A stretch of DNA of 64,000 nt. Origin: Rhodobacterales bacterium. GTDB taxonomy: Bacteria > Pseudomonadota > Alphaproteobacteria > Rhodobacterales > CAZPXZ01. The stretch lies in assembly GCA_965219495.1 (NCBI GenBank), contig OZ244777.1:93193-157192 (forward strand), in the 5' to 3' direction. The notes beneath the pieces are model-generated. The model did not search any database, was not told the origin of the DNA, and saw only the letters and a program-made list of their open reading frames with translations. Shown piece after piece: positions 19,763 to 33,968 of this stretch; position 1 is the stretch's first letter; every line of letters starts with the position of its first letter. The position numbers and the translations under genes were made by a program.

Positions 19763-20034
19763 TGTTGTCGTTTTCGCGCGTTGTCACCCTTTGGCGAGTT
19801 GGCCTCCAAGAACTCTATGGCTAATTCCGACCGGAGATCACTTTACCGGACAAGTCGCAGAAGTGATGGAATCCAATGCATGGATCCGAGCAAAGCGCAG
19901 TTGCTTGCAATTGTCGGCGGGCGAAATCCAAGTGGAGCGCGAGATGCATGGAAAGATCCGTTGCGTCCACGCATTCCTGCAATGACCCCGGTGCATCGGG
20001 GGTGGGACGCCCCCCGAGTTCACCGGTCGCCGGG

Positions 20035-20844
20035 TCAGTTCAGGATGCTTCGGATTGGATCGGCAGGCGACGGATCGAAGCCGATCAAGTCTTCAACCAG
20101 ACTCCCGAAAGTTCCGTCGGCCACCATCTCGGCCCTTGCCGCGTTGATTGCGCTCACCAGGTTCGGCTTGGCTTTCTTGACGGCCCATCCGAGTTGATAG
20201 GGAATATGCAATTCGTCGGTCCAGCGCAGGGGCATTTTCGACACCTGAATTGCGTAGGCTGCGGCGATAGAATCCATGACCGCGCCGTCAATCCGCCTGT
20301 TCACGGTATCCTGCATCACCCCGACATCGGATGGGTAGTGTCTTACTTCGGCACCCCAACCTTCAGCCAAAGGCACGAAAATTGACGCCGTGATCACGCC
20401 AATGGACTTCCCCTCGGCGTCGGCAGAAGATTGAATCGTTGAATCCTGGTGCACGATCAACCGTGCGCCCGACTCGACCCAGCCGTCGCAAAACGTGACG
20501 CTCTTTTGCCGTTCCTCGGTGATACCCATTGCGCTTCCGACGACATCGTACTTGTCCGCCAATAGCGCTACCAGCATGGATTCCCACTTGATGACGACGG
20601 GCTTGTAGTTCAGGCCCAGCCTCCCGCAGATTTCCCTCATGGCCCGCATTTCAAGCCCGTCGAGCGTGCCATCATCCTTGGTGAAGCTGAATGGCGGATA
20701 CACTCCCTCGGTCGCCGAACTCAACTCCCCAGGCACCAACAGTTCAAGTTCGTCGGCGAATGCCGGACGGCGCATGACCCACGGCAACGCAAGCGTGGTC
20801 GCTACGGCTGCTGAACTCTTCCGGATAAACTCACGTCGTTTCAT
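20035..20844 (-). CDS. Polar amino acid ABC transporter substrate-binding protein with Tat signal
   Basis: MKRREFIRKS twin-arginine signal; TEGVYPPFSF, MGITEERQKSVTF. Confidence 0.9.
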   Translation of the reverse strand: MKRREFIRKSSAAVATTLALPWVMRRPAFADELELLVPGELSSATEGVYPPFSFTKDDGTLDGLEMRAMREICGRLGLNYKPVVIKWESMLVALLADKYDVVGSAMGITEERQKSVTFCDGWVESGARLIVHQDSTIQSSADAEGKSIGVITASIFVPLAEGWGAEVRHYPSDVGVMQDTVNRRIDGAVMDSIAAAYAIQVSKMPLRWTDELHIPYQLGWAVKKAKPNLVSAINAARAEMVADGTFGSLVEDLIGFDPSPADPIRSILN

Positions 20845-20904
20845 GAAGATCTCCCTTTCTCGCTCATCACTATTCTTGCTAGTTCTCCAAACATTGCACT
20901 GTCT

Positions 20905-21573
20905 TCAGATATGCAATTTGTACCGCCTCTCATGCCAGGACGCAAACTGACTGAGCATTGTTGTCATTGCCAGATACAGTATCGCTGCAGCGATGTAGAA
21001 ATCGAATGGTCGAAACGTGGTAGCGATGGCCATCTGTGTGAAGAGCGTAAGTTCGAGAACGGTAATCGTAGAAAGCAGAGATGTGTTCTTCAGTGTGTTG
21101 ATGGCTTCATTCGTGAGCGCGGGAACGATGATCCTCACCACCTGGGGCAGGATGATGCGTCTCATCATGAGAATTGGCCCCATTCCAAGAGCTTGGGCGG
21201 ACTCGCCTTGTCCACTTGGAATTGCCGCGAGTCCCGAGCGGAACACCTCGGCGACGTACGCGCCGCTACCGATGGAGAGTGCAACGACGCCCGCCACAAA
21301 CGGTGAAAATACCAGACCGAATTGGGGCAGCGCGAAATAGATGATGAATATCTGTATCAGCGAGGGCGTTCCGCGCATGAACCAGATGTAGAATTTGCAA
21401 GGATAGCTAAGAACGCCAAACTGCGAGTTCTTGCCCAACGCCGCGAACAGTCCCAGGACCCAGCTGAAGACGATGGAAAGCAGGGCGACCTCCATTACGA
21501 TTACGCAGGAATACAATAGCCCGGGCCCATACTTTCCGTAGGAGTTCCAATATTCGATAAAGCTGCTTTCCAT
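20905..21573 (-). CDS. Polar amino acid ABC transporter permease
   Basis: RGTPSLIQ, AYVAEVFRSG, GQGESAQALG, LKNTSL. Confidence 0.92.
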   Translation of the reverse strand: MESSFIEYWNSYGKYGPGLLYSCVIVMEVALLSIVFSWVLGLFAALGKNSQFGVLSYPCKFYIWFMRGTPSLIQIFIIYFALPQFGLVFSPFVAGVVALSIGSGAYVAEVFRSGLAAIPSGQGESAQALGMGPILMMRRIILPQVVRIIVPALTNEAINTLKNTSLLSTITVLELTLFTQMAIATTFRPFDFYIAAAILYLAMTTMLSQFASWHERRYKLHI

Positions 21574-21606
21574 GGCAGAATCCCTCGTGTGTCGCGTCTT
21601 GCGATC

Positions 21607-22404
21607 CTAAAGGTGGTGAAGAACACGGCTCAGAAATTCGCCGGTCCGTTCGTTGCGCGGATGCGAAAGAAGTTCCTGGGAAGGTCCCATCTCGGCGATT
21701 TCGCCGTCGTGGAAGAAGGCCGTGCGCTGGCTGACATGGCGCGCAAATCCCATCTCGTGGGTTACGACAAGCATCGTCATCCCCTGTTGCGCAAGTGACA
21801 TCATGAGATCCAGCACCTCGCCCACCAGTTCCGGGTCTAGGGCCGAGGTCACTTCGTCGAACAACATCATCTTGGGATCCATGGCAAGTGCCCGGACAAT
21901 CGCCACCCGTTGTTGCTGGCCGCCCGACAGTCTGTTCGGATACTCGTTGCGCTTTTCCGCGAGACCGATGCTCGCCAGGAACGCTTCCCCTTGCGCTAGG
22001 GCATCGGCGTACGGGATCCGCTTTACCTTGACCGGCGCTTCAATGACGTTCTCCAGCACCGTCTTGTGCGGCCATAAGTTGTAACTTTGGAACACCATGC
22101 CAATCGACGTTCGCAAGACCTTGAGCGCCCCTGCACCCCTCCATAGCGTGCCGTGGCGCCGATAGTCGACGGGTTTACCGTCGAAGATGATCTTTCCGGA
22201 TGACGGCGTCTCGAGAAGGTTGACACAACGCAACAGTGTGCTCTTGCCCGACCCACTGGCCCCGATGATCGCGATCACCTCCCCTTGCTGGACGGTAAGG
22301 GAGATTCCCTTCAGCACCTCGGTTTCGCCAAACGACTTTCGGATGTCCGCGAGCCGCAATAGATCACCGCGTGTTTCACTGGATTCAGTTGGGTGCGATA
22401 CCAT
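21607..22404 (-). CDS. Polar amino acid ABC transporter ATP-binding protein (GlnQ-like)
   Basis: [36 protein letters not shown]; start approximate. Confidence 0.92.
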
Positions 22405-22634
22405 GATACATTGCTTTCTGGATGGGTCTGGCGACCGCCTATCGGGCGCCAGCGGGCGTATGAGCATGGCGAAGTAGGCGCGAGGGATCGTAGCCGGTTT
22501 CACGTGTCTCCCTTCGCAATCGGAGTATGACTGGCCCGCCCGGCGGCGGCTGATTTATTAGCTATAGTCGCTTCCGATCTGTCAAGCATGGCCGGTCGCG
22601 AGGATCGTTCGCGGCGCGCTACAGGGAGAAAGCG

Positions 22635-23750
22635 ATGTCAACAAAGTCATTTGAAGAGCTATTTCGCAGAGCAGCCCAGCGTTCCGCAGAACGCTCGATC
22701 AAGTCAAACAGTTCGTTTCGCTCAGTCATGCCGATGTTGCGCCACGACGTGCCGACATTCATTGAGGCGCCGCACGATTGGGACAAGCCGGACAGCGACA
22801 TTGTCTTCTGCGGCTTTCCATATGAAGGCATCCGGCCACGGGACACACGGACCATGATAGAGCCAGGAATTCCTCTCGAAAACACGGTCTATGCGCGTGA
22901 CGGGGCGTTCGAAGCGCCCGATGCAGTCCGCCGCCATTCGCTCCACTATTCCCTGGCGCACGGTCCTGGCCTCCATCATTATGAAATTGATCCCGAGTTT
23001 TGCTTGGCCGCCAACATTTCCATCAGCGATGCGGGCGACTTGCCAGTCGATCTGACTGCCCCCACGGGTTCGATGTTACATGAAGCCTCGGACCAGCTCG
23101 GCACAATCATCGGCGCCGATCGAGTCCCCATTCTCATGGGCGGAGACGACATTACTCCGTATGTAGGTTTGCGCGCCGTAGCGCGACAGCGCAAGTCCCG
23201 GATCGCCGTCATCAAGTTTGATGCACATTTCGATCTTTGCTGGGAACCGCGCTATTGGGCTGGGTCGCAATGGGCGCGGGCGATGGAAGCTGGATACTTG
23301 CTGCCAGAAGACCTCGCCATTATTGGCATCCGGGGATTTCGGAATCCCAGCGTGTTTGGCGAGGTCGCCCACGAACTTGGCGTTCGCTACTGGACGCTGC
23401 CGGCAATCGGCGAGAAGGGAATTGTAGCCTGTGTTCACGAGGCGGTTGACGCCGTCACCGGACAGGCGGACTTTCTCTACCTGTCTTTCGATGTGGACGT
23501 GATGGACCCGGCATTCCTGCCGGCGCAGAAATACCCTGAACCGGCCGGCATGACGGCGCGAGAGGCGGTCCGAGGACTGCGCGCGGCCGTTGCGGCGGGG
23601 CCAACGCTTTGCGGCTTCGATCTAGCCTGTTTGGCTCCCCGGTATGATGTCAATGGACTGGGCTGTCAGCTTGCCGCACGATTCGCTGTGGAGGTAATCT
23701 CCAGTCACGCATATCGGCGTTCGTCGGCGCTTCAAGCCAATCCCGAGTAG
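22635..23750 (+). CDS. Second, divergent ureohydrolase (arginase family)
   Basis: GGDD, DAHFD, SFDVDVMDP, PEPAGMT; GGGAG ribosome site. Confidence 0.85.
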   Translation: MSTKSFEELFRRAAQRSAERSIKSNSSFRSVMPMLRHDVPTFIEAPHDWDKPDSDIVFCGFPYEGIRPRDTRTMIEPGIPLENTVYARDGAFEAPDAVRRHSLHYSLAHGPGLHHYEIDPEFCLAANISISDAGDLPVDLTAPTGSMLHEASDQLGTIIGADRVPILMGGDDITPYVGLRAVARQRKSRIAVIKFDAHFDLCWEPRYWAGSQWARAMEAGYLLPEDLAIIGIRGFRNPSVFGEVAHELGVRYWTLPAIGEKGIVACVHEAVDAVTGQADFLYLSFDVDVMDPAFLPAQKYPEPAGMTAREAVRGLRAAVAAGPTLCGFDLACLAPRYDVNGLGCQLAARFAVEVISSHAYRRSSALQANPE

Positions 23751-23859
23751 AGAGAGAGACTCCGTTCTTCGAGCAAGACCATTGCCGAAGCGCGATGCGC
23801 CGAGACTGAATTCGCATTTGCGTCGATGGTCAATGCCCACTTGACTGTCTGCATTCCGG

Positions 23860-24120
23860 CGAAATCCTGGAAACTCCGGTCGAGGCGCTGCAGCACATCC
23901 CGGAACACCTGCAGGCCGAGGTCGGCGAACTCGGGAAATTGCGGATCGCCGTCAAAGACTTGCATTGGTCGTAATAGGAAATCGAAATCCCGCCTTCTCC
24001 CAGGCGCCGATGCGCTCCTCAAGCGCGGCGTTGTAGAACCGGCAGCAAAGCCGGAGCACCTCGCCAAGACGGCGATGCGCGGCCGGGGTGAGCCGTGTCC
24101 GGCATTTGAATATCCGGAAC
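23860..24120 (-). pseudogene. tnpB: N-terminal fragment of a TnpB (IS200/IS605 RNA-guided nuclease), frameshifted
   Basis: FKCRTRLTPAAHRRLGEVLRLCCRFYNAALEERIGAWEKAG, then in shifted frames ISYYDQCKSLTAIR and QVFRDVLQRLDRSFQDF; no RuvC domain present. Confidence 0.72.
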
Positions 24121-24173
24121 ACCGGTCGGGCGCCACCGGTGGGAGAGGCGGGATTGGGTTGCATCGGAGTTCG

Positions 24174-24596
24174 CCGATCTACGTCTACAAGGCCGAGCGG
24201 GTCTGCGCCCACGTATTCCTGTGCATGCTGGCCTATTGCCTGGAATGGCATCTGCGCCGGCGCCTGGCGCCGATGCTGTTCCAGGACGACGATGCCGCCG
24301 CCCGGGCCCGGCGCAACTCGCCGGTCGAAAAAGCCGAAGTCTCCGACCGCGCAAAGCGGAAAGCCGACACCAAACGGACCGACGACGGCGACACCGTGCA
24401 CAGCTTCTCCACCCTGATGCGCGATCTCGCCACCCTGACCCTCAACGAGGTCACCCTGCCCGGCGCAACCCGGCACAGTTTTCCGTTGTTCGCCGTGCCT
24501 ACCCCCTCCCAGCAAAAGGCCTTCGAACTGCTCGAAGTGGACCCGACCAAGTTTGTTGCCAGTAAACTGGCAGGCGGATTCCCGATAACTTTCTGA
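24174..24596 (+). pseudogene. C-terminal fragment of an IS1634-family transposase
   Basis: PIYVYKAERVCAHVFLCMLAYCLEWHLRRRLAPMLFQDDD...VHSFSTLMRDLATLTLN...PTPSQQKAFELL. Confidence 0.8.
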
Positions 24597-24626
24597 CACC
24601 AATGGGCTTTCGACCATTTTGGCCGA

Positions 24627-25432
24627 GTAGAGTCGGGGGGAGGCGCGCCCTGCCGTAGGTCGAAGGAGTAGCGGTTGTCCGGCGGCTTTCGCCAGATGCC
24701 GGTGCCTCAATCTCGCCCGTAGTCACGTTTCCTCACCCCCGCTCATCAAACCGGACGGGCCCTACTCAGGCATCCGGCTTACAGACGAGATCATGTCTTC
24801 GCCCACGGAAGGCTCTTGGTCTTCGGCGCAAGGTGGACTAGGCCGAGGTCATGCCACAGCCGCGGGTTGGAGCACCGCACGTATTTTTCGATTTTCACCT
24901 TGTGCTTCCGACAGAGCCACCGTCGCAGCCGCCGGGTCGCGTGTTCATCGACAGCCTTGTAGGCCGGGCTGACTTGTCCGAGGATGTAGTACTTCGACCA
25001 GCCGGAGAGCATCCGGTTCAGGCGTTGTACCCTCTCCTCTGTCGTCATCAGTCCGTACCGCGCAGCCGTCTGGTCGCTGATCTTGCGGCAGATGCTCTGG
25101 ACGCCGGCCTTGCTCGGGCGGGTGCCGATGTAGCTCCCCTTCCCGTTCCGGCGGTAGTTGCGTCCAATGCGGTATCCGAGAAACTCGAAAGCTTCGTCCG
25201 GATACCGCAGGCATCGGGATTTCTGTTTGTTGACCGGGAGCTTCAGCTTGTCCATGAGCCGCTTGACCGCCGTCAGCATCTCCGCTGACGGGGCCCTGCC
25301 GAGCACACAGACATCATCCGCGTAGTTCACGATCTTCGCGCAGTAGCGCCGGGCATAGCCCAGCTTCTTCCAGCCCAGAATGAAACGTCGCATGTAGAGA
25401 TTGCTGAGCAGGGGTGAAATCGGAGCCCCTTG
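24627..25432 (-). mobile_element. 3' half of a group II intron (RT domains 4-7, maturase X domain, RNA domains V and VI)
   Basis: Domain V AAGCCGGATGC...GTCCGGTTTG (about 24748-24780) and domain VI ending CCCCCCGACTCTAC at 24627 on the minus strand, directly after the RT stop. Confidence 0.9.
24791..25432 (-). pseudogene. ltrA: Group II intron reverse transcriptase/maturase, truncated at the RT4 motif
   Basis: QGAPISPLLSNLYM, YADD, FEFLGY, LNRMLSGWSKYY; RT0-3 absent; no endonuclease domain. Confidence 0.9.
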
Positions 25433-25799
25433 TATGGGGATTCTTTTGTCAAGGGGGGGGGCTCCAAAGTTCAAGGCAGCGCTGACGGGACGGTCCTTGC
25501 CCGAAGGACCGGCGCAGATGGAGGCTCGTGGCGAGGTGGCGATTTACCGCTCAGCGGCTCAAGGTCTTGGGGCACCGAACGGTTTCGGGTTCCGAGAACG
25601 ATGCTGCCGACAGGCCGAACTCCCGGATGTCTCCGTTCGCCGGGAACGCGGGGCACGCGCGCTGCGACGGCGCCGCCCGGAACGGCGCATGTTCGCGTCT
25701 TTGCCCGTGCGGGGCGATGCCCCCGCGATTGACGTTCGGGTTGTTGGGCGGTGGCTGGCCGGGGGTTCTGCTGCTTGTTCCGTGCCTGTGTGATTCTAT

Positions 25800-26030
25800 T
25801 GGATCCGAGGGGAACTTCTCGCCGGCGGCGCAGTACGTCGCGCCACACCCTTGTATTCGGTTGGGCCGTGTTCGGCCCGGACCATGATGCAGTGATTCGC
25901 ATCGGCGGCGCAGTTCCGAGGCGGCGGGCCCAGCCTTGCGGACGGCGTAAGAGCCATGGGGCGTCATCGGGTTGCCGCCACCTCGGATCGTGAGGGCCGG
26001 GCAGGGCCAAAGTCTGGCTTGCCCGGCCGG
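25800..26030 (-). ncRNA. Putative bridge RNA (seekRNA) of the IS110 element
   Basis: Three consecutive stem-loops; the second and third share the pattern GCnnCATGG-stem-CCGnnnnCAAGG and their loop sequences match the insertion junction at 25425-25435. Confidence 0.75.
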
Positions 26031-26044
26031 TCACCTGGTTCCGG

Positions 26045-27005
26045 CTACGGCTGCGCCGGTTTCAAGATGACGCCGGCGGGCACTTCTCCTTGTGTGGAGT
26101 AGCGCCACAGGGCGATCAAAAGCTTGCGCGCCAGGGCGACGATCATCCTCTTGCGCACCTCCTTGCCGGCGTGTTCGGTGTTTTCGCAGAACCACTGCGC
26201 CAGCTCGCTTTCGGGCTGGAACCGCAGGAAGCGCCAGGCGAACTGGATCATGCCGTTGCGCACCCGCGCATTGCCGGCTCGCGCCAAGCCTCTTTCGCGC
26301 CGTTTGGCGCCGCTCTCGTCGGGCGATCCGGTGAGTCCGCCGTACCGCGCCACCGCCCGCCGGTCGCGCAGCTTGCGGGAAAACACCTCGCCGGCGAGCA
26401 TATCGGCGGTTTCGACGCCGAGCCCGTGAATCTCGCTCAACATCCGCACCATGGCGTGATGCTTGTCGTCCGGGCGCCGCGCCATGCGTTCCTCCCGATC
26501 CGCCTCGATCGCGGCGATCTGCTCGCGCAGGAAACCCAGCCGCGCCATCTCGCGGCGCAGTTCCGCCATGGCGTTCGGCGGCGCCGGTTCGCCTTCCGGG
26601 GTGCGAAGCTCGGCAAGCAGCCCGGGCGCTTTCTTCAACTTCGGGTTGAAGCCGCGGACGCCAAGCCGTACCAACGTCGCTTTCATCCGGTTGGTCACCC
26701 GGGTCGCTTCCCGGACGAGCACTTCCCGCTCGCGATGCGCCCCCTTCGCGTCCTCTTCCTCGATCGACGGAACCGCAACCATCCGGCAATGTTCTTCCTC
26801 GCCGCGCAACCAGCCGAAGAACGCGCGCATCAAGAGCCGGCAATCCAGCCGGTCGGTCTTCGCCCGCCGGTGGTCCCGCTTCACCGGAATGCTGGTCGCA
26901 TGCATCACCAACGTCTCGACCCCGCGGGCGCGCAGCCAGCGCGCCAGCCAGAAGCCGTCGCGGCCCGCCTCGTAGGCGACGCAGATCCGCTGCATCGAAT
27001 GCCCC
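26045..27005 (-). pseudogene. IS110-family DEDD recombinase lacking its N-terminus
   Basis: YEAGRDGFWLAR, AKTDRLD, catalytic-Ser motif PDESG, GNARVR, IVALARKLLIALWR; the first acidic residue region of the RuvC-like domain appears missing. Confidence 0.85.
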
Positions 27006-27169
27006 CGTTTCCCTGCTCTTTGAAACAGCCAAAGGCGGCTGCTTGGAAAGGAAAGCAATGAAGGATCGCGCGATCCCGATTTCCAGCTTTAAACCGATTT
27101 CCCAGTCACTCCGTCAACGGAGCAATCCGGGAAAAAACAGCCCGATCCTGACGAATTAATCAGAGATAC

Positions 27170-27781
27170 AACACCATAGCGCGCCGCGTAGTCACCGGCC
27201 ATCGCACGCAGGCACAGGCTGAGCGCCTTCGAGGCCAGGTTCCGGCACCCGGTCCCGGGACGAACAAGAAAACGCGACAGCCCCACTACCCGGTCAAGAT
27301 GCGCCTCGCGGCGGCCCGCGTCCCATCCGATCCGCCGGTCGCGCGGCTGCAGCGCTAGCGCCGAGGCGGCGAACAGGCAGCCGCCGAGCCAGCCGTGCTC
27401 CGAGCCGATCAGATACCGAAGCTGCCGCCCCACATGCACAACCGCCCCGTGCGGATGTTCCCGCCGCATCATCTCGTTGAACCGCCGCCGATCCGCTTCC
27501 TCATCGACCCGCAGCGCCACAAGGCCGTCGATCCGCCCGACACCGGAACCGGGACCTGGCGGCGGCAGCACAATGCCCCCCGCGCGCTCAAGCTCCCGCA
27601 GCGCCGACAGGCATCCCGCCTCCTGCAGCCGGCCACGCGGATCGCGGAAATCGAAACGCGCGCAATCCTCGCGCACCAAAGCCGAGCGACCGGAAAACGC
27701 ATCCGGCGCCGGAAGCGCCGCCAATGTCTCCCGTCCTTCGTCCGAAAACAGGGTGCGGCGAATCAGATTCTGTGCAAGCAT
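27170..27781 (-). pseudogene. DUF4338 (DruA-like) domain fragment, probably the N-terminal part of a large IS4-family transposase
   Basis: GRQLRYLIGSEHGWLGG, RDRRIGWD, VVGLSRFLVRP, NLASKALS, DYAARYG; breaks off at 27170. Confidence 0.72.
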
Positions 27782-27825
27782 GCACCCTGATAACAGGCGC
27801 AGTAAAAAAAGTTCAGTAGCAAAAA

Positions 27826-28974
27826 GCGCAATGGGCAGCCCGCGCCCGGCGGCCTCGCTGGCGGTGTTTTGGGAAGCCTCCCGGCGGCTGTATTCGCAAC
27901 TGGTGGACCGGCATGGCCTGCGCCGCATCCCCCCTGGACCTGGATGCGACGATCGTTGCCTCGGGCAAGCGCGAAGCGCTGCCGACTTACCGGGCTTCGG
28001 CCGGGGTGTGTCCGGGGGAGACGGGGTACCAGCCGCTGAACGTGTTTTGCGCGGAACCGGGGCTGATGGCGCATTCGGAGATGCGCGACGGCAACGTGCC
28101 GGCCAGGGAAGGCAACGCCCGGGTGCTGCTGGAGGCGCTGGAACGGCTGCCCGGCGCGGTCGAAGAGGTGACGGTGCGCAGCGACAGCGCCGGACATGCA
28201 GTCGAGGTGATCCGGCTCTGCAACCGTCCGGAGACCCGGCCGGACGCCGGCGGCGCCCGGCGCTTGGGGGTGGTCGGCTTGGTGATTTCGGCGGTGCATT
28301 CCGAGGCGCTGATGAACCAAGTGATGCGAACCCCGGAGACCGCATGGAAGCCGTTCGGGGAGAAGCCGAAAGAACCGGAGGCCGAAGTGGCCTCGATTGC
28401 CGGGATCAACTTCGTGTCGAATGCCGACGGCAATCGCAAGGGGCCCGAGATCCTTCGCTACATTGCCGTGCGAAGGCCCCGGCCCGGATCGCTCGGAGTG
28501 AAGGCCAACGAGATCCCCGCCCGTGACGGCCACCCGGCCTACGGCATTCGGGCGCTGCTGACCAGCATCCCGGCGCCCGGCGGCGAGCGGCCGGACGGCC
28601 TCGGACCGAAACCGATGCCGGCAGAAGAAGTCCTGTCCTTCGCCAACCGCCGCTGCGGCGACGCCGAGCAGGTCCACGATACGCTCAAGAACAGCCTCGC
28701 CGGCGGCATCCTGCCCTGCGGCCGGTTCGGCAGCAACGCGGCCTGGTGGCACGGCGCCATCCTGGCGTTGAACGTCCACGCCTGGCTCGGCCATAGCGCC
28801 CTCGAAGCCGACTTGCGCCGGGCCCACTGGAAACGGCTGCGGGCGGTGATCCTGGTCCACGCTGCGCGCCTGGTCTGGCACGCGCGGAGATGGATCCTGG
28901 TGTTGCGGCAAGCCGGAACCGAAGAACTTCGCGCCGCCCTGGAACGCCTTTCCAGATGCTCCGCTCCCTGTTGA
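27826..28974 (+). pseudogene. IS1380-family transposase, N-terminally truncated with a frameshift near 27930
   Basis: LDLDAT, GYQPL, RDGNVPA, VRSDSAG, RCGDAEQVHDTLK, PCGRFGSNAAWW, ARLVWHARR. Confidence 0.82.
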
Positions 28975-29751
28975 CGCCGGGAGATCCCCGCTGCAACCGC
29001 CGGCAAATCCGAGCCGCCGTCGAACCGTGACCGGAAGCGGGGCGCGCCACCGAAATTCTGCGCAAACGCTCGATCCGTTACGCCTCGGTGATCGCCCGGG
29101 GCGCCGGAAAACGAATCACCCGGCTTCTCCGCGCAATTCGCGCCAAAATCTCCGCCAGAACCTCCTCAGACCCCGTTCCATAGCCGTAGCTCGCGTATTT
29201 GGGGAGTTTTTGCTTGGTTGCTTCATTGAGCGATTCGTGCCATCGTTTTTGCAAATGCGCAAGCGGAAACCGCCTTCCTGTCAACCCATGTATGTAGTAC
29301 CCAAATCTACCTCCCGGTTGCGGCCATCGGATCGTTCGCCGCCATCGCGAAGGCTTCGCTGGATCGGGCGTGTGCAGTTTCTGGAAATGCGATCGGGGTA
29401 TGTTTCCGACCCGACAAATGTTCACTGTCGAGTTATCAAACAACGATGGCGCCGGAATGCGCATTGGCTAGCTGACCATTGCCTTGGTCGCAACGTCGTG
29501 AGGAATACTGGCAGTGCGGCCTCCCGCCGGCACCGGACAATTTCGTGGAAGTGCGACCGTCGAATCGAAATATGATCCGGAATTTCAGAGAAGATGGTTT
29601 TTCAATGGCATGGGCGCACAGGCAATCATCAGCAAGAGCGGTGAGATTTCACTGAAAGGTGTGTGGGCGCATCGCGGGGTGAACAGGAAGGGGAGGTCGC
29701 AATAGAGCGCCTCCCTAAAGCGCGCGGCAACAAATAACGATGAATGCGGGG

Positions 29752-29828
29752 TGGCGCACCCGAGAGGATTCGAACCTCTGACCCCCGCCTTCGGAGGGCG
29801 GTGCTCTGTCCTGCTGAGCTACGGGTGC
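29752..29828 (-). tRNA. tRNA-Arg (CCG)
   Basis: 77-nt cloverleaf GCACCCG...CGGGTGCGCCA; anticodon arm CCGCC-CTCCGAA-GGCGG; GGTTCGAATCC T-arm. Confidence 0.97.
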
Positions 29829-29898
29829 TCCTCGACACAGTACATTTTCTTACGAAGTGCGTCCATTTGCAATTGGTGTCTTGGTGTCCGCTGCACCT

Positions 29899-30870
29899 TC
29901 ATTGGTCTCCGAGCCTCGTTCCCGTCAGGGCAAGGAATACATCGCGCAGATCCTGTTCATCCGTGGTTATGTCCTGGATTCGAATTCCCTTGCCGCGAAT
30001 CCTGTCAAGGATTTGCTCTATAGGCGTTTGACTGCGGGAGAATGTCACGCGAATCGCTCCGTCTGGTCGAATCGTTGCCGAGGCTCCGGGTGCCGGGCTG
30101 ACCAAGTCCGCAGGAAGCTCGGTCAAGTTCTTTGCGGGGAAGATATTTACGCTCTTCAGCTCGGACTGGCGAAGGAGAGCGTGCTTTTCTTCGCATGCCA
30201 CAACCCTTCCGTGCTGCAGAATTGCGATGGTGTCGCAAAGCTCCTCGGCTTCTTCGAGGTAGTGCGTGGTCAGTATCACGGTGGTGCCCGCCGCGTTGCG
30301 ACTGCGCACGTATTCCCACAGGTGAATGCGAAGCTCGACATCGACTCCCGCTGTCGGTTCGTCCAGGACGAGAACGGGAGGATTGTGAACCAAGGCCTTT
30401 GCGACCAGAAGCCTTCTGCGCATGCCGCCGGACAAGGAACGCGTATAGCCGTGCGCCTCGTTTGCGAGTCCCACGGCTTCAAGAATCTCCATCGTTCTCC
30501 GTCGCGACTTTGGTACCGCGTATAGGCCTGCCTGCAATTCGAGCACTTCGAACGGGGTAAAAAACGGGTCGATGTTCAGTTCTTGGGGCACAACGCCAAT
30601 CATTGCGCGTGAAGTGCGGGGATTCGCCTCCTGATCAAATCCCCAAATCCGGACGAGCCCGGAATCCTTGATTACGAGACCCGCAAGAATATTGATGAAC
30701 GTTGACTTTCCGGCGCCGTTGGGTCCCAGCAACCCGAAAATCGACCCAACGGGAACCTCCAGATCAATTCCCTCGAGCGCGAGTTTGCCGCCGTGCCGGG
30801 TGTGGTAGGTCTTGTGAACATTTCGCGCCTCGATGGCAAGACTTCGCATTGAATTTCGGCTTTCTCGCAT
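29899..30870 (-). CDS. ABC-2 type exporter ATP-binding protein (YadG-like)
   Basis: GPNGAGKS, LSGGMRRR, LDEPTAGVD, LTTHYLEEAE; alternative start at 30849. Confidence 0.9.
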   Translation of the reverse strand: MRESRNSMRSLAIEARNVHKTYHTRHGGKLALEGIDLEVPVGSIFGLLGPNGAGKSTFINILAGLVIKDSGLVRIWGFDQEANPRTSRAMIGVVPQELNIDPFFTPFEVLELQAGLYAVPKSRRRTMEILEAVGLANEAHGYTRSLSGGMRRRLLVAKALVHNPPVLVLDEPTAGVDVELRIHLWEYVRSRNAAGTTVILTTHYLEEAEELCDTIAILQHGRVVACEEKHALLRQSELKSVNIFPAKNLTELPADLVSPAPGASATIRPDGAIRVTFSRSQTPIEQILDRIRGKGIRIQDITTDEQDLRDVFLALTGTRLGDQ

Positions 30871-30944
30871 ACCTTCAACTTGTTCGGGACGTGGTGTGCA
30901 TTATCATGTCTGCGCGTCCAATTTCAAAAGCCAATGCGTAAGCC

Positions 30945-31133
30945 GTGTACGTGGATCCCGAATCAATTCAAGCCCCCGAAATTCAGCGGGTTCAAACAGT
31001 AGCCGTGCAGTGTGACGGCGGCGGTGGCGCATCGGGGCATCCATTGGTGTATCTCCGCATAGGTGAGTCCGGTTATGTGGAATGCCCGTATTGCGACAAG
31101 CGGTTCGTTCTTGACGGGGACGACGATGCCTGA
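30945..31133 (+). CDS. Zinc-finger CHCC domain protein (NDUFS6-like)
   Basis: CDGGGGASGHPLVYL...VECPYCDKRF. Confidence 0.88.
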   Translation: MYVDPESIQAPEIQRVQTVAVQCDGGGGASGHPLVYLRIGESGYVECPYCDKRFVLDGDDDA

Positions 31134-31145
31134 AGCGACGGCGCC

Positions 31146-33968
31146 TTGATGTCCCCGCAGTCTAGTATTGGTCCTGGCGATCATCTTGTCCTGCTCGATG
31201 GTTCAGGATTCGTTTTTCGAGCCTATCACGCCTTGCCGCCGCTGACGCGGCGGTCAGATGGCTTGCCGGTAGGGGCGGTGTCGGGCTTCTGCAATATGCT
31301 GTTCAAGCTCCTCCGGGACGCTGTCGGCGGCGACCAGCCGTCGCACTTGGCAGTGATCTTCGACGCGAAGGGAACGAGCTTTCGGAACGAAATCTTCGAA
31401 GCGTACAAAGCGAATCGTCCGCCGCCGGAGCCCGACTTGGTTCCCCAATTCCCGCTCGTGCGGGAAGCCGTACGGGCCTTCAATGTGGCCTGCGTGGAGT
31501 TGGTCAATTTCGAAGCTGACGATCTGATCGCGACCTATACGCGCCAAGCCGAACAGGCTGGCGCCCGGGTCAGCATTTTTTCATCCGACAAAGACTTGAT
31601 GCAGCTCGTTTCCGATCGTGTCGAGATGCGCGATACGATGAGAAACTCTGCAATCGGGCCGAATGAAGTTCGCGAAAAATTTGGCGTTGGTCCCGAGAAG
31701 ATGGTGGACCTTCAGGCTCTGGCTGGCGATTCCACCGACAATGTGCCCGGTGCGCCGGGAATCGGTGTGAAAACCGCGGCGGCACTGCTGCATGAATACG
31801 GAGATCTTGACAATCTCCTGGCGAGAGCGAGCGAGATCAAGCAGCCGAAGCGGCGCGAAGCCCTGACCGAATTCGTGAAACAGATCAGAGTATCCAAGAA
31901 ACTGGTCCAACTCGATGATCGCGTACCGGTGCCAGTGCCGGTCGGCGACTTTCGAATGGCGGCTCCTGAGCCGGACAAACTGCTGGAATTTCTCCGCAAG
32001 ATGGAGTTTCGCACATTCACAGAGCGCGTGGCCGCTTCGCTCGGCGCGAATGCTGGGGCCGTGGAGGAAGCAAAAGGTGCCGCGGAGGCGGCTTCCGTAG
32101 CGGGTGATTTTTCAGAGCTTCAATATGAACTGGTGAACTCTCGGGAGCGTCTCCAAGCCTGGGTCTTGCGAGCCTGGGAGAAAGGAGCCGTAGCCGTCGA
32201 TACGGAAACCGATTCGCTCGACGAAATGCGGGCCAAACTCGTCGGGGTGTCGCTTGCGGTCACGGCCGGAGAGGCATGCTATATCCCTGTCGGTCATCGC
32301 AACGAGAGCGAAACGGAAGGACTCTTTGCGGCAGAGCCCACGCTTAGCGAAGGCCAGTTGCCAATTGGTGTCGCGCTCGAAGTTCTGCGTCCGCTGCTGG
32401 AAGATGAGACGGTGCTGAAAATCGGCCACAACCTGAAGTTCGATGCGAAGGTGTTCGGGCAATACGGCATCGAACTCCGGTCCATCGACGACACCATGTT
32501 GATGTCTTATGTGCTTGCCGCTGGCCGGCACCGCCAGAAGCTGGACGATCTCGCGGAAATTTATCTCGGTCACAAGACGCAACCCATTACGGAGTTGATC
32601 GGGAAAGGGCGAACACGGATCACTTTCGCGCAAGTGGACCCAAAGAAAGCCGCGCACTATGCCGCGGAAGACGCAGATGTTGCGCTTCGATTACATCACG
32701 TATTCCGGCGTTCGCTGATTGATGACAGCAAAAGTACGGTCTACGAAACGCTTGAACGGCCGCTGCTTCCCGTTCTTGCCGCCATGGAGAGGACCGGCAT
32801 GCGGGTGGACCCGAAGGTTCTGGAGAAGATCTCCGCGGAATTCGGACAACGAGCAAGAGAACTTGAACGCGAAATTCACGAGATCGCAGGTGAGGCCTTC
32901 AACGTTGCCTCTCCGCAGCAGCTTGGCACAATTCTGTTTGAAAAACTCTCGCTGCCCGGGGCGAAGCGGACTTCGAAGTCGGGCGGCTATCAGACCGGAG
33001 CGGGGGTGCTGGAAGAACTTGCAGCCCAAGGGTTTGAAATTGCCTCGAGAATCGTGGACTGGCGACATCTCACCAAACTGAAGGGCACCTACGCGGATGC
33101 GCTCGTGCAGCACATTCACCCGGATACCCGACGCGTGCATACTTCTTTTTCGCTTGCCGCTACGTCGACCGGGCGTCTCGCTTCCATGGATCCGAATCTT
33201 CAGAACATTCCGATTCGCACGGAAGAGGGACGGCGCATACGGCAAGCGTTCGTAGCAGCTCCGGGAAACGTTCTGTTATCCCTGGATTACAGTCAAATTG
33301 AACTTCGCGTGCTCGCGCATGTCGCCGAAATCGAGTCCCTGCGCGAGGCCTTTCGGCAAGGGATGGACATTCATGCCATGACGGCTTCGGAAGTGTTTGG
33401 TGTGTCGATCGAGAACATGGACCCGATGGTTCGTCGGCGCGCCAAGGCGATCAATTTTGGCGTGATCTACGGGATTTCCAGATTCGGCCTCGCCAACCAG
33501 TTGCGAATTCCACAGCAGGAAGCCGGCGCCTTTATCGACGCCTATTTCGAGCGCTTCCCTGGAATTCGCGACTATATGCGCCACACGGTGAAGAGCGCGC
33601 GCGACCGGGGATACGTCGAGACCTTGTTCGGAAGGCGGGTGCACACGCCGAATATCAACGCCAAGGGTCCGACTCGCGGCTATCAGGAGAGAGCTGCAAT
33701 TAACGCACCGATCCAGGGAAGCGCGGCAGACATAATTCGGCGAGCCATGATCCGCATTCCACCGGCGCTTGAGCAGGAGTGCGATTCCGCAAAGATGTTG
33801 CTGCAGGTTCATGATGAACTCCTGTTCGAAGTGCCCGAGAGTCGGGTCGAATCCACCTGCGACTTGGTGCGCGGCATCATGGAGCGTGCGTCCGATCCGG
33901 CGGTGAGGCTATCGGTGCCCATAGTTGTCGATACAGGAGTCGGGTCGAGTTGGGCCGAGGCGTATTGA
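31146..33968 (+). CDS. polA: DNA polymerase I
   Basis: 5'-3' exonuclease (DGSGFVFRAYHA, EADD), 3'-5' exonuclease (DTET), polymerase motifs DYSQIELR, AKAINFG, LQVHDEL. Confidence 0.98.
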   Translation: MMSPQSSIGPGDHLVLLDGSGFVFRAYHALPPLTRRSDGLPVGAVSGFCNMLFKLLRDAVGGDQPSHLAVIFDAKGTSFRNEIFEAYKANRPPPEPDLVPQFPLVREAVRAFNVACVELVNFEADDLIATYTRQAEQAGARVSIFSSDKDLMQLVSDRVEMRDTMRNSAIGPNEVREKFGVGPEKMVDLQALAGDSTDNVPGAPGIGVKTAAALLHEYGDLDNLLARASEIKQPKRREALTEFVKQIRVSKKLVQLDDRVPVPVPVGDFRMAAPEPDKLLEFLRKMEFRTFTERVAASLGANAGAVEEAKGAAEAASVAGDFSELQYELVNSRERLQAWVLRAWEKGAVAVDTETDSLDEMRAKLVGVSLAVTAGEACYIPVGHRNESETEGLFAAEPTLSEGQLPIGVALEVLRPLLEDETVLKIGHNLKFDAKVFGQYGIELRSIDDTMLMSYVLAAGRHRQKLDDLAEIYLGHKTQPITELIGKGRTRITFAQVDPKKAAHYAAEDADVALRLHHVFRRSLIDDSKSTVYETLERPLLPVLAAMERTGMRVDPKVLEKISAEFGQRARELEREIHEIAGEAFNVASPQQLGTILFEKLSLPGAKRTSKSGGYQTGAGVLEELAAQGFEIASRIVDWRHLTKLKGTYADALVQHIHPDTRRVHTSFSLAATSTGRLASMDPNLQNIPIRTEEGRRIRQAFVAAPGNVLLSLDYSQIELRVLAHVAEIESLREAFRQGMDIHAMTASEVFGVSIENMDPMVRRRAKAINFGVIYGISRFGLANQLRIPQQEAGAFIDAYFERFPGIRDYMRHTVKSARDRGYVETLFGRRVHTPNINAKGPTRGYQERAAINAPIQGSAADIIRRAMIRIPPALEQECDSAKMLLQVHDELLFEVPESRVESTCDLVRGIMERASDPAVRLSVPIVVDTGVGSSWAEAY

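Follow-up and report, generated by a model that had tools for sequence, protein, structure and literature searches.

A truncated insertion sequence joined to half of an intron reverse transcriptase

We analysed a stretch of 64,000 nucleotides (nt) of a Rhodobacterales genome (GCA_965219495.1, contig OZ244777.1, positions 93,193 to 157,192), hereafter the window, in which the remains of an IS110-family (IS1111-like) insertion sequence (IS) are joined to half of a group II intron reverse transcriptase (RT). Coordinates are window positions unless another genome or locus is named, and the features of the IS, its RNA gene and the intron all lie on the minus strand. Along this strand come, in order, a DruA/DUF4338-like gene, a 178-nt repeat, the IS110 transposase open reading frame (ORF), non-coding DNA, the intron RT and the intron 3' RNA. 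The IS relic spans 25431 to ~27009. Its right end, the limit of which is set by the family terminus ...CCCCATACA, is intact; its left end and the ~70 first transposase codons are gone, and its left limit is the point where similarity to relatives ends and the unrelated 178-nt repeat starts.

The truncated DEDD/IS110 transposase ORF (26045 to 26995, with the frame open to 27058 and the stop codon at 26045-26047) encodes 316 amino acids (aa) from its first ATG. It is a truncated member of the family, matching both domains of the IS110 pair (PF01548 and PF02371), that is, Pfam DEDD_Tnp_IS110 at profile positions 51-152 of 155 plus Transposase_20, as well as NCBIfam NF033542, 'IS110 family RNA-guided transposase', at positions 49-342 of 343 (168 bits, for a cutoff of 140). 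The ~50 first profile positions that are missing include the first acidic residue. Relatives were collected by a protein-seeded scan of genome contigs, which found 90 and of which 80 were kept, the best at 72% aa identity; full-length proteins from these 80 loci (58-72% aa identity) begin ~70 residues earlier, with MQKLNDLSRS...IAVIEMS.... In the 4.68-Mb genome, tblastn detected the window transposase gene and no further gene of IS110 type. Elsewhere, at genome positions 552891-553147, is a second fragment, which corresponds to the final 257 nt of the element (97% identity), carries the same terminus CCCCATACA and ends in ...CCCCATACAAGGGGC followed by AGCC....

From the transposase stop codon at 26045 to the right end at 25431, the DNA is non-coding for 614 nt and terminates in ...TCCCCATACA; in relatives this region measures about 480-560 nt. 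The terminus itself (25431 to 25439) contains a subterminal inverted repeat, CCCCATA, which is kept in relatives and is the inverted match of the left-end TATGGGG. We considered the last 257 nt (25425-25682) as a separate element and rejected this, given that the 480-560-nt non-coding region of relatives has the same terminus. Judged by its sequence, the copy in the window is a relic, inactive but complete at its right end.

On the other side of the junction, the C-terminal half of a group II intron RT/maturase (24791 to 25428) starts inside motif 4 (..QGAPISPLL, YADD, GIIM). Its Pfam matches, RVT_1 at profile positions 121-205 of 205 and GIIM, bear out the original prediction, made from the letters of this DNA, that the IS end is joined to the Q-G-A-P-I codons of an intron RT. 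Identity to the four intact paralogues of the genome, which belong to full introns, is 66-70% at the aa level. The 3' end of the intron RNA (domain V/VI region) occupies 24623 to 24790; nucleotide similarity to other intron copies stops at 24623-24627, and the Rfam Intron_gpII match at 24627-24782 scores 29.8 bits, below the gathering score of 40. Among contigs from four public runs compared over 24600-27400 there was no uninterrupted intron and no full-length IS; contigs of two public runs cross the IS/RT junction, with only 25 nt on the IS side. Of the public runs listed as containing the stretch, none is on record as RNA.

A two-loop RNA gene downstream of the transposase

Recombinases guided by bridge RNAs or seekRNAs are known, as is their preference for repeats such as repetitive extragenic palindromic (REP) sequences, attC sites and transposon ends. 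In an alignment of the first ~270 nt past the stop codon, taken from the window and from 67 relatives and comprising 55 distinct sequences, a strongly conserved scaffold contains two internal loops, one of them hypervariable and the other constant. The consensus fold of 29 sequences consists of two stem-loops with 50 pairs, 10 of them with compensatory changes, and the window RNA folds likewise on its own (-85.9 kcal/mol, z = -2.9). The two parallel loops described originally are thus conserved in both the alignment and the consensus fold. In the window, this bridge/seekRNA-like gene lies in the 3' non-coding region at 25807 to 25986; no Rfam bridge-RNA family matched over 20000-32000 at E <= 1.

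Loop 2 is invariant and reads GCATC-A-TGG ... CCG-(A/G/C)ATACA-AG. Its 5' strand, GCATC (25886 to 25890), is the reverse complement of the core G plus the left-end start of relatives, ATGC, and its 3' strand, AATACA + AG (25850 to 25857), is identical to the right-end terminus ATACA plus the core. GCATC-ATGG is unchanged in the 29 aligned sequences, and CCG(A/G/C)ATACAAGG is present in 66 of the 80 relative loci, ~190 nt past the stop codon. Loop 1 shares this frame with varying letters, N(~5)C-(A/T)-TGG ... CCG-N6-AG, and reads GACGCCCC-A-TGG ... CCG-TCCGCA-AG in the window. There, the 5' strand carries the right-target guide GCCCC (25958 to 25962), the reverse complement of the core G + GGGC, and the 3' strand carries the left-target guide TCCGCA + core AG (25935 to 25942), which is the sequence expected for the left flank. 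Neither the TGG that closes the 5' strands nor the CCG and AG(A/G) on either side of the 3' strands varies; these are scaffold or core, and the programmable guide portion comes to ~5 nt (CCGCA) plus 4 nt (GGGC).

The strings on which the original prediction was built are indeed found on the minus strand: ...TCCCCATACAAGGGGCTCCGATT at 25440-25418, GCCCCATG at 25962-25955, CCGCAAGG at 25941-25934 and ATACAAG at 25856-25850. Of the 7/8 complementarity that it saw between loop 1 and the flank, the right-flank pairing stands, and the single mismatch turns out to be a habit of the family: the position opposite the core A is A in 14, T in 14 and C in 1 of the 29 aligned sequences.

Relatives define the guide rule

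Element ends were read from multi-copy relatives within single metagenome-assembled genomes (MAGs), and junctions were tabulated for the 67 relatives with both loops. The left junction is left target-AG-ATGCTATGGGG, the element starting ATGC..., and the right junction is ...GCCCCATACA-AG-right target. The 3' strand of loop 1 equals the last 6 nt of the left flank followed by AG, except that the first letter mostly differs, and the 5' strand is the reverse complement of the core G and the next 4 nt of the right flank. Over 39 distinct sites, the right-flank match by position, counted from the core G, is 1.0, 0.92, 0.90, 0.79 and 0.92, and then 0.54, 0.62, 0.23, 0.28 and 0.13, the last three being at background level. 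Loop 2 applies the same rule to the element's own ends (ATACA-AG; G-ATGC).

Covariation between loop and flank, which the original prediction had proposed as a check, is clear. When each of the 19 guide classes is represented by a single site, 148 of the 171 guide positions agree with their flanks, compared to a shuffled mean of 66.2, and none of 20000 shuffles reaches 148, a result that concerns the sites of relatives and is not a strict probability because the classes are related.

In relatives AG flanks both ends of the element, and it is found as a single copy in uninterrupted targets. Within the same genomes we counted 12 empty, 5 occupied and 1 other targets for class AGGAAA; 18, 9 and 5 for AAAGGG; 17, 11 and 2 for ATTGGA; 4, 4 and 3 for GTTTCG; and, for TAACAG, 6 empty and 5 occupied targets plus 3 variants without one AG. 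Empty sites with one AG in five classes indicate simple insertion without target duplication. They also fix the core as AG, and the candidate cores CAAG and GG were rejected. The shared core CAAG (25429-25432) of the original prediction is accordingly corrected to AG (25430-25429), the CA belonging to the element end ...CCCCATACA. The assignment of loop 1 to the target and loop 2 to the donor, and the 11-nt target CCGCA-AG-GGGC, follow from the grammar of the family. Together, alignment, fold and covariation support the view that the predicted RNA 3' of the recombinase is a two-loop bridge/seekRNA in which loop 1 would read the target and loop 2 the donor.

Two loci show unusual arrangements. 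Locus L015 carries guides of the GTTTCG class in a target typical of the AAAGGG class (flanks CAAGGG-AG ... GAAACCGCG), as a result of either off-target insertion or guide-region exchange between elements. At a GTTTCG-class intron target in another genome (G122, L356:~1455-1499), the right flank is preceded by other DNA, with the end ...CTCGTCATGTGAG, and another element possibly uses this site.

The window junction agrees with the guide

By the family rule, loop 1 of the window specifies the target (T)CCGCA-AG-GGGC(GTCA...). At the junction, the crossover core AG (25429 to 25430) is followed by the target right half GGGC (25425 to 25428), made of bases 2-3 of the Gly codon GGG and the GC of the Ala codon, and matching the guide at 4/4 positions. 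Right of the core, GGGCTCCGATTTCACCC... is in the RT reading frame from motif 4 onward, and the observed flank, AG-GGGC-TCCGATT, contains the Q-G-A-P-I codons. The flank of the second fragment is likewise AG-GGGC.

The reading frame at the site is ?? ??A GGG GCT CCG ATT, aligned to P-Q-G-(S/A)-P-I. The four paralogous introns of the genome read GTPQGSPISPLL at this place, and 16/16 homologous RT genes have CCN CAR GGN there, suggesting that the lost left half ended in CCNCA, as the guide CCGCA requires. From genome composition, the chance of GGGC after the core is p ~0.008 and that of a guide fitting CCNCA is p ~0.005. The original prediction had read loop 1 as Pro-Gln-Gly codons, the missing half of the target; this fits all 16 RT genes. 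These observations support the right junction as a putative on-guide insertion at the Q-G codons of the intron RT. We infer the left half of the window target, because no intact copy of the intron lineage was found (see below), and likewise the past activity of the copy and the order of decay.

A plausible course of events can be proposed. While the element was active, an excised circle with the junction ...CCCCATACA-AG-ATGC... would have been the substrate, and would have recombined at the AG core into the DNA site CCGCA-AG-GGGC. This site would have been CCG CAA GGG GC, the Pro-Gln-Gly-Ala codons of motif 4 of the intron RT, and the gene would have been split there. Later insertions and deletions in what is now an IS graveyard would then have cost the element its left part and the intron its 5' half.

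Group II introns as targets of sister guide classes

Rfam scans of 72 relative loci plus L002 and of 17 empty-site loci, to which tblastn searches with RT queries were added, showed that 4 of the 17 sister guide classes insert at fixed group II intron positions, with uninterrupted copies found for three of the four. Class GTTTCG (4 loci in 4 MAGs) lies 17-28 nt beyond the D1D4-4 region and upstream of the RT ORF, the IS being antisense to the intron. Class TAACAG (6 loci) is inside the D1D4-4/-6 region and adjoins its conserved GGGUGAGAGUCCC motif, within which the single AGAGGA locus is found. Class AGGAAA (6 loci in 5 genomes) occupies the middle of an intron without an ORF, with D1D4-2 ~210 nt before it and domain V ~190 nt after it. 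Empty copies agree with these positions: the order is D1D4-2, target and domain V for AGGAAA, and D1D4-4, target and RT ORF for GTTTCG, and the D1D4-4 match spans the target for TAACAG.

An Rfam intron match at gathering level is found at most 210 nt from the junction in 4/4 GTTTCG, 2/6 TAACAG, 1/1 AGAGGA and 5/6 AGGAAA loci. For classes AAATGG, AAAGGG, AAAGGC, ATTGGA, AATGGA and AAAGGA, an intron piece lies within this distance in 0/35 loci (one is at 850 nt). Intron proximity therefore depends on the guide and not on the genomic background. The sister lineages strike ribozyme parts and not the RT motif; with the window included, the clade has five guide sets that point at group II introns, in four or five distinct positions. 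Group II introns thus appear to be a recurrent natural target of this clade, and the original notion of intron sequences as targets gains four sister classes at fixed sites. Given this recurrence, the window insertion fits a habit of the clade rather than an accident of the graveyard.

Short intron-like units were also seen in arrays. In genome G101 (L248/L249) they are in tandem with 645-nt spacing, each with an AGGAAA-class target. In the window genome (G000 1930141-1932810; L002:706-885), ~25 copies of ~878-nt intron-like units, one with an Rfam D1D4-4 match, occur just left of the second IS fragment.

Alternative explanations and the question of specificity

The explanation that we favour, and hold to be probable, is that a now dead IS1111-like element made a guide-directed insertion which split an intron RT at its Pro-Gln-Gly-Ala codons, introns being a recurrent target of the clade. 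Several observations weigh against it. The 11-mer CCGCAAGGGGC (CCGCA-AG-GGGC) occurs 9 times in the genome, for 7.7 expected from composition; none of these occurrences is in an RT gene and none is occupied. It is also absent from 16/16 homologous RT genes, 8 of which read CCCCAAGGGTC, matching the guide at 9/11 positions. RT genes lack the 11-mer because their synonymous codons differ, and such synonymous variation defeats a DNA guide aimed at a protein motif. Guide positions 5-6 (G, T) mismatch the RT flank (T, C). The second right end (genome 552891-553147) lies in a unique, non-RT flank, leaving one of two surviving right ends in an RT gene. No intact copy or orphan 5' half of the window intron lineage exists in the genome, and no intact copy exists among 100 related genomes (best 69-70% aa identity), so that the uninterrupted intron that the original prediction had suggested looking for did not turn up. 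Finally, contigs of public runs X5, X6 and X7, from three other studies, have G>T at 25940, which changes the guide TCCGCA to TCAGCA in these contigs. The X7 contig differs from the window at 25/1366 positions.

Further searches for this guide returned little. The window guides are present in none of the 80 kept relatives, a DNA search with the non-coding region in 60 related genomes gave weak 40-nt matches only, and a metagenome pattern search for both guide strands, with a pattern that was too loose, returned at least 120 stretches, with the family scaffold in 0 of the 80 loci listed, all of them chance matches. That the lineage was programmed against the Pro-Gln-Gly (PQG) motif, as originally proposed, is therefore a possibility to which one insertion points; with one of two right ends in an RT gene and the 11-mer in none of the 16 homologous RT genes, the proposal is not established. 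Nor does the related proposal of a parasite that inactivates retroelements apply to this copy, which is dead, and nothing here currently inactivates retroelements.

The points above could also mean that the insertion was guide-directed and the RT site a fortuitous near-cognate 11-mer, with another repeat as the evolved target and nothing special about introns. We regard this as the less likely account, albeit one to be taken seriously. Its best candidate is a six-copy Transposase_29 (PF21804) gene (genome G000 1694124-1696404 and five more copies), which holds 6 of the 9 genomic 11-mers and the best full guide match in the genome: it reads ACCGCAAGGGGCG and fits the left target at 5/5 positions, the core, the right target at 4/4 and guide position 5. 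Sister classes that hit non-intron repeats (an IS5-like transposase ORF for the L012 class, a ~135-nt multi-copy repeat and a multi-copy element for others) speak for it too, as do the 3 of 7 copies that sit at unrelated partial matches in one relative MAG, the right end outside RT and the lack of the 11-mer in homologous RT genes. Yet all six Transposase_29 sites are uninterrupted, and relatives match at positions 5-6 in no more than 54-62% of their sites, which makes the additional match at position 5 weak evidence. Moreover, four sister classes are independently in introns, and the guide fits both the observed and the codon-derived halves of the RT site.

It is improbable that unrelated deletions or rearrangements placed the IS end next to the RT fragment and that the loop matches by chance. 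The setting would allow it: the whole block is nested within another repeat, the halves of which are at 23861-24171 and 29210-29305, in a mobile-element graveyard with pieces of at least six repeats; both IS and intron are truncated, and the matched stretch is short. Against this, the break falls exactly at the family terminus CCCCATACA plus AG and not within the element, the next 4 nt equal the guide here and at the second fragment, and the RT frame puts CCNCA where the guide has CCGCA (at the chance levels given above). The idea that the two hairpins are ordinary 3' untranslated region or terminator structures devoid of guide function, to which the lack of an Rfam match would lend some credit, is scarcely tenable: it is already contradicted by guide-flank covariation across 19 classes, the constant donor loop fits the constant ends, and the architecture agrees with that described for the IS1111 seekRNA (PMC11187229).

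Introns inside the bridge-RNA gene

The reverse event, an intron in the guide gene, is seen too. On one Paracoccaceae MAG contig (L016:4104-6093 and L017), a complete group II intron lies between loops 1 and 2 of the bridge-RNA gene. It starts GTGCGCC directly past the scaffold GATGCGT and is directly followed by a second tandem copy; D1D4-4 and domain V are present in it, and its RT shares 77% aa identity with the intron family of the window genome.

These cases allow a broader and more tentative reading, about which we remain somewhat doubtful: that the target loop was redirected to group II introns on repeated occasions within the clade and that introns home into the bridge-RNA gene, in a reciprocal sequence-specific parasitism. 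Under this reading, the five guide sets, aimed at domain I, domain IV, an ORF-less intron and the RT PQG codons, would be independent, and the window relic would be the only case aimed at a protein-coding motif.

At L036:4100-4290 the bridge-RNA segment is inverted, and its loop 1 guide is joined to an RT gene that lacks its first ~95-123 residues. The arrangement resembles the product of an inversion that broke at the DNA encoding the guide.

Comparison with known systems

We compared the element to IS1111 elements with seekRNA, namely ISEc11, ISKpn4/ISPst6/ISPa25 and ISPa11 (Siddiquee et al. 2024, PMC11187229), and to the IS621 bridge RNA of the IS110 group (Durrant et al. 2024, PMC11208160). 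With the IS1111 elements it shares a DEDD transposase, a long non-coding region downstream of the transposase gene, subterminal inverted repeats (here CCCCATA/TATGGGG, 7-8 bp, of which the window keeps the right-hand one) and an own target for each lineage, often in repeats or mobile DNA (attC, REP). The order within loops is also common to both, with the top-strand complement 5' of the top-strand match and an overlap at the crossover (PMC11187229), and both of our loops follow this strand rule, the 5' strand complementing the right half and the 3' strand being identical to the left half.

The differences from the IS1111 seekRNA elements (PMC11187229) lie in lengths, ends and targets. Full-length relatives have open frames of 391-394 aa (~385 aa counted from the first Met) and transposases of ~385-393 aa, instead of 330-350 aa. 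Their inverted repeat, GCCCCATA / TATGGGGC, is 7-8 bp long, below the 11-13 bp of that group and within the 7-17 bp given in PMC11208160. Terminal extensions of 4 nt (ATGC) and 2 nt (CA) lie outside the AG core, group II intron RNA domains are among the targets, as is an RT coding motif in the case of the window, and the window copy is truncated and inactive. With IS621 (PMC11208160) the element has in common separate target and donor internal loops, a 2-nt core within the pairings, simple insertion without target duplication, and strand rules that agree. Unlike in IS621, the RNA is in the right end and not the left, the order of guides within the loop is reversed, the core is AG and not CT, and the effective guides are shorter (~5 + 2 + 4 nt). 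Another IS110-family element also has its target in mobile DNA, a transposon terminal repeat there and a retroelement (ribozyme or RT gene) here.

The mechanism, bridge/seekRNA-guided IS110/IS1111 recombination, is already known; the novelty lies in what is targeted. In the literature searched, which did not extend to supplementary target tables covering hundreds of IS that may bear on novelty, no description of group II introns as natural targets of IS110-family elements was found; the word 'intron' has no occurrence in the main texts of PMC11208160 and bioRxiv 10.64898/2026.08.14.744561. If confirmed, this target class would consist of a selfish element with a programmable RNA that lands in, and disables, another RNA-based selfish element. 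In the window itself both elements are relics and this biology is over. The relatives provide a natural series of ~19 guide/target pairs with matched empty sites, which defines the grammar of the subfamily: a core AG, ~5 + 4 programmable nt and a mismatch-tolerant first left-guide position.

Neighbouring repeats

The point at which the transposase is truncated abuts the 178-nt small repeat (27004-27199; TGTTGTATCTCTGATTAATTCG...GGGAAACGGG), of which the genome contains 3-4 further copies (87-96% identity). The DruA/DUF4338-like ORF (27171-27847) is part of a ~10-copy element and is cut at 27171. It is adjoined by an IS1380-like element (DDE_Tnp_1_4) at 27840-29203, present in ~10 copies of 94-98% identity.

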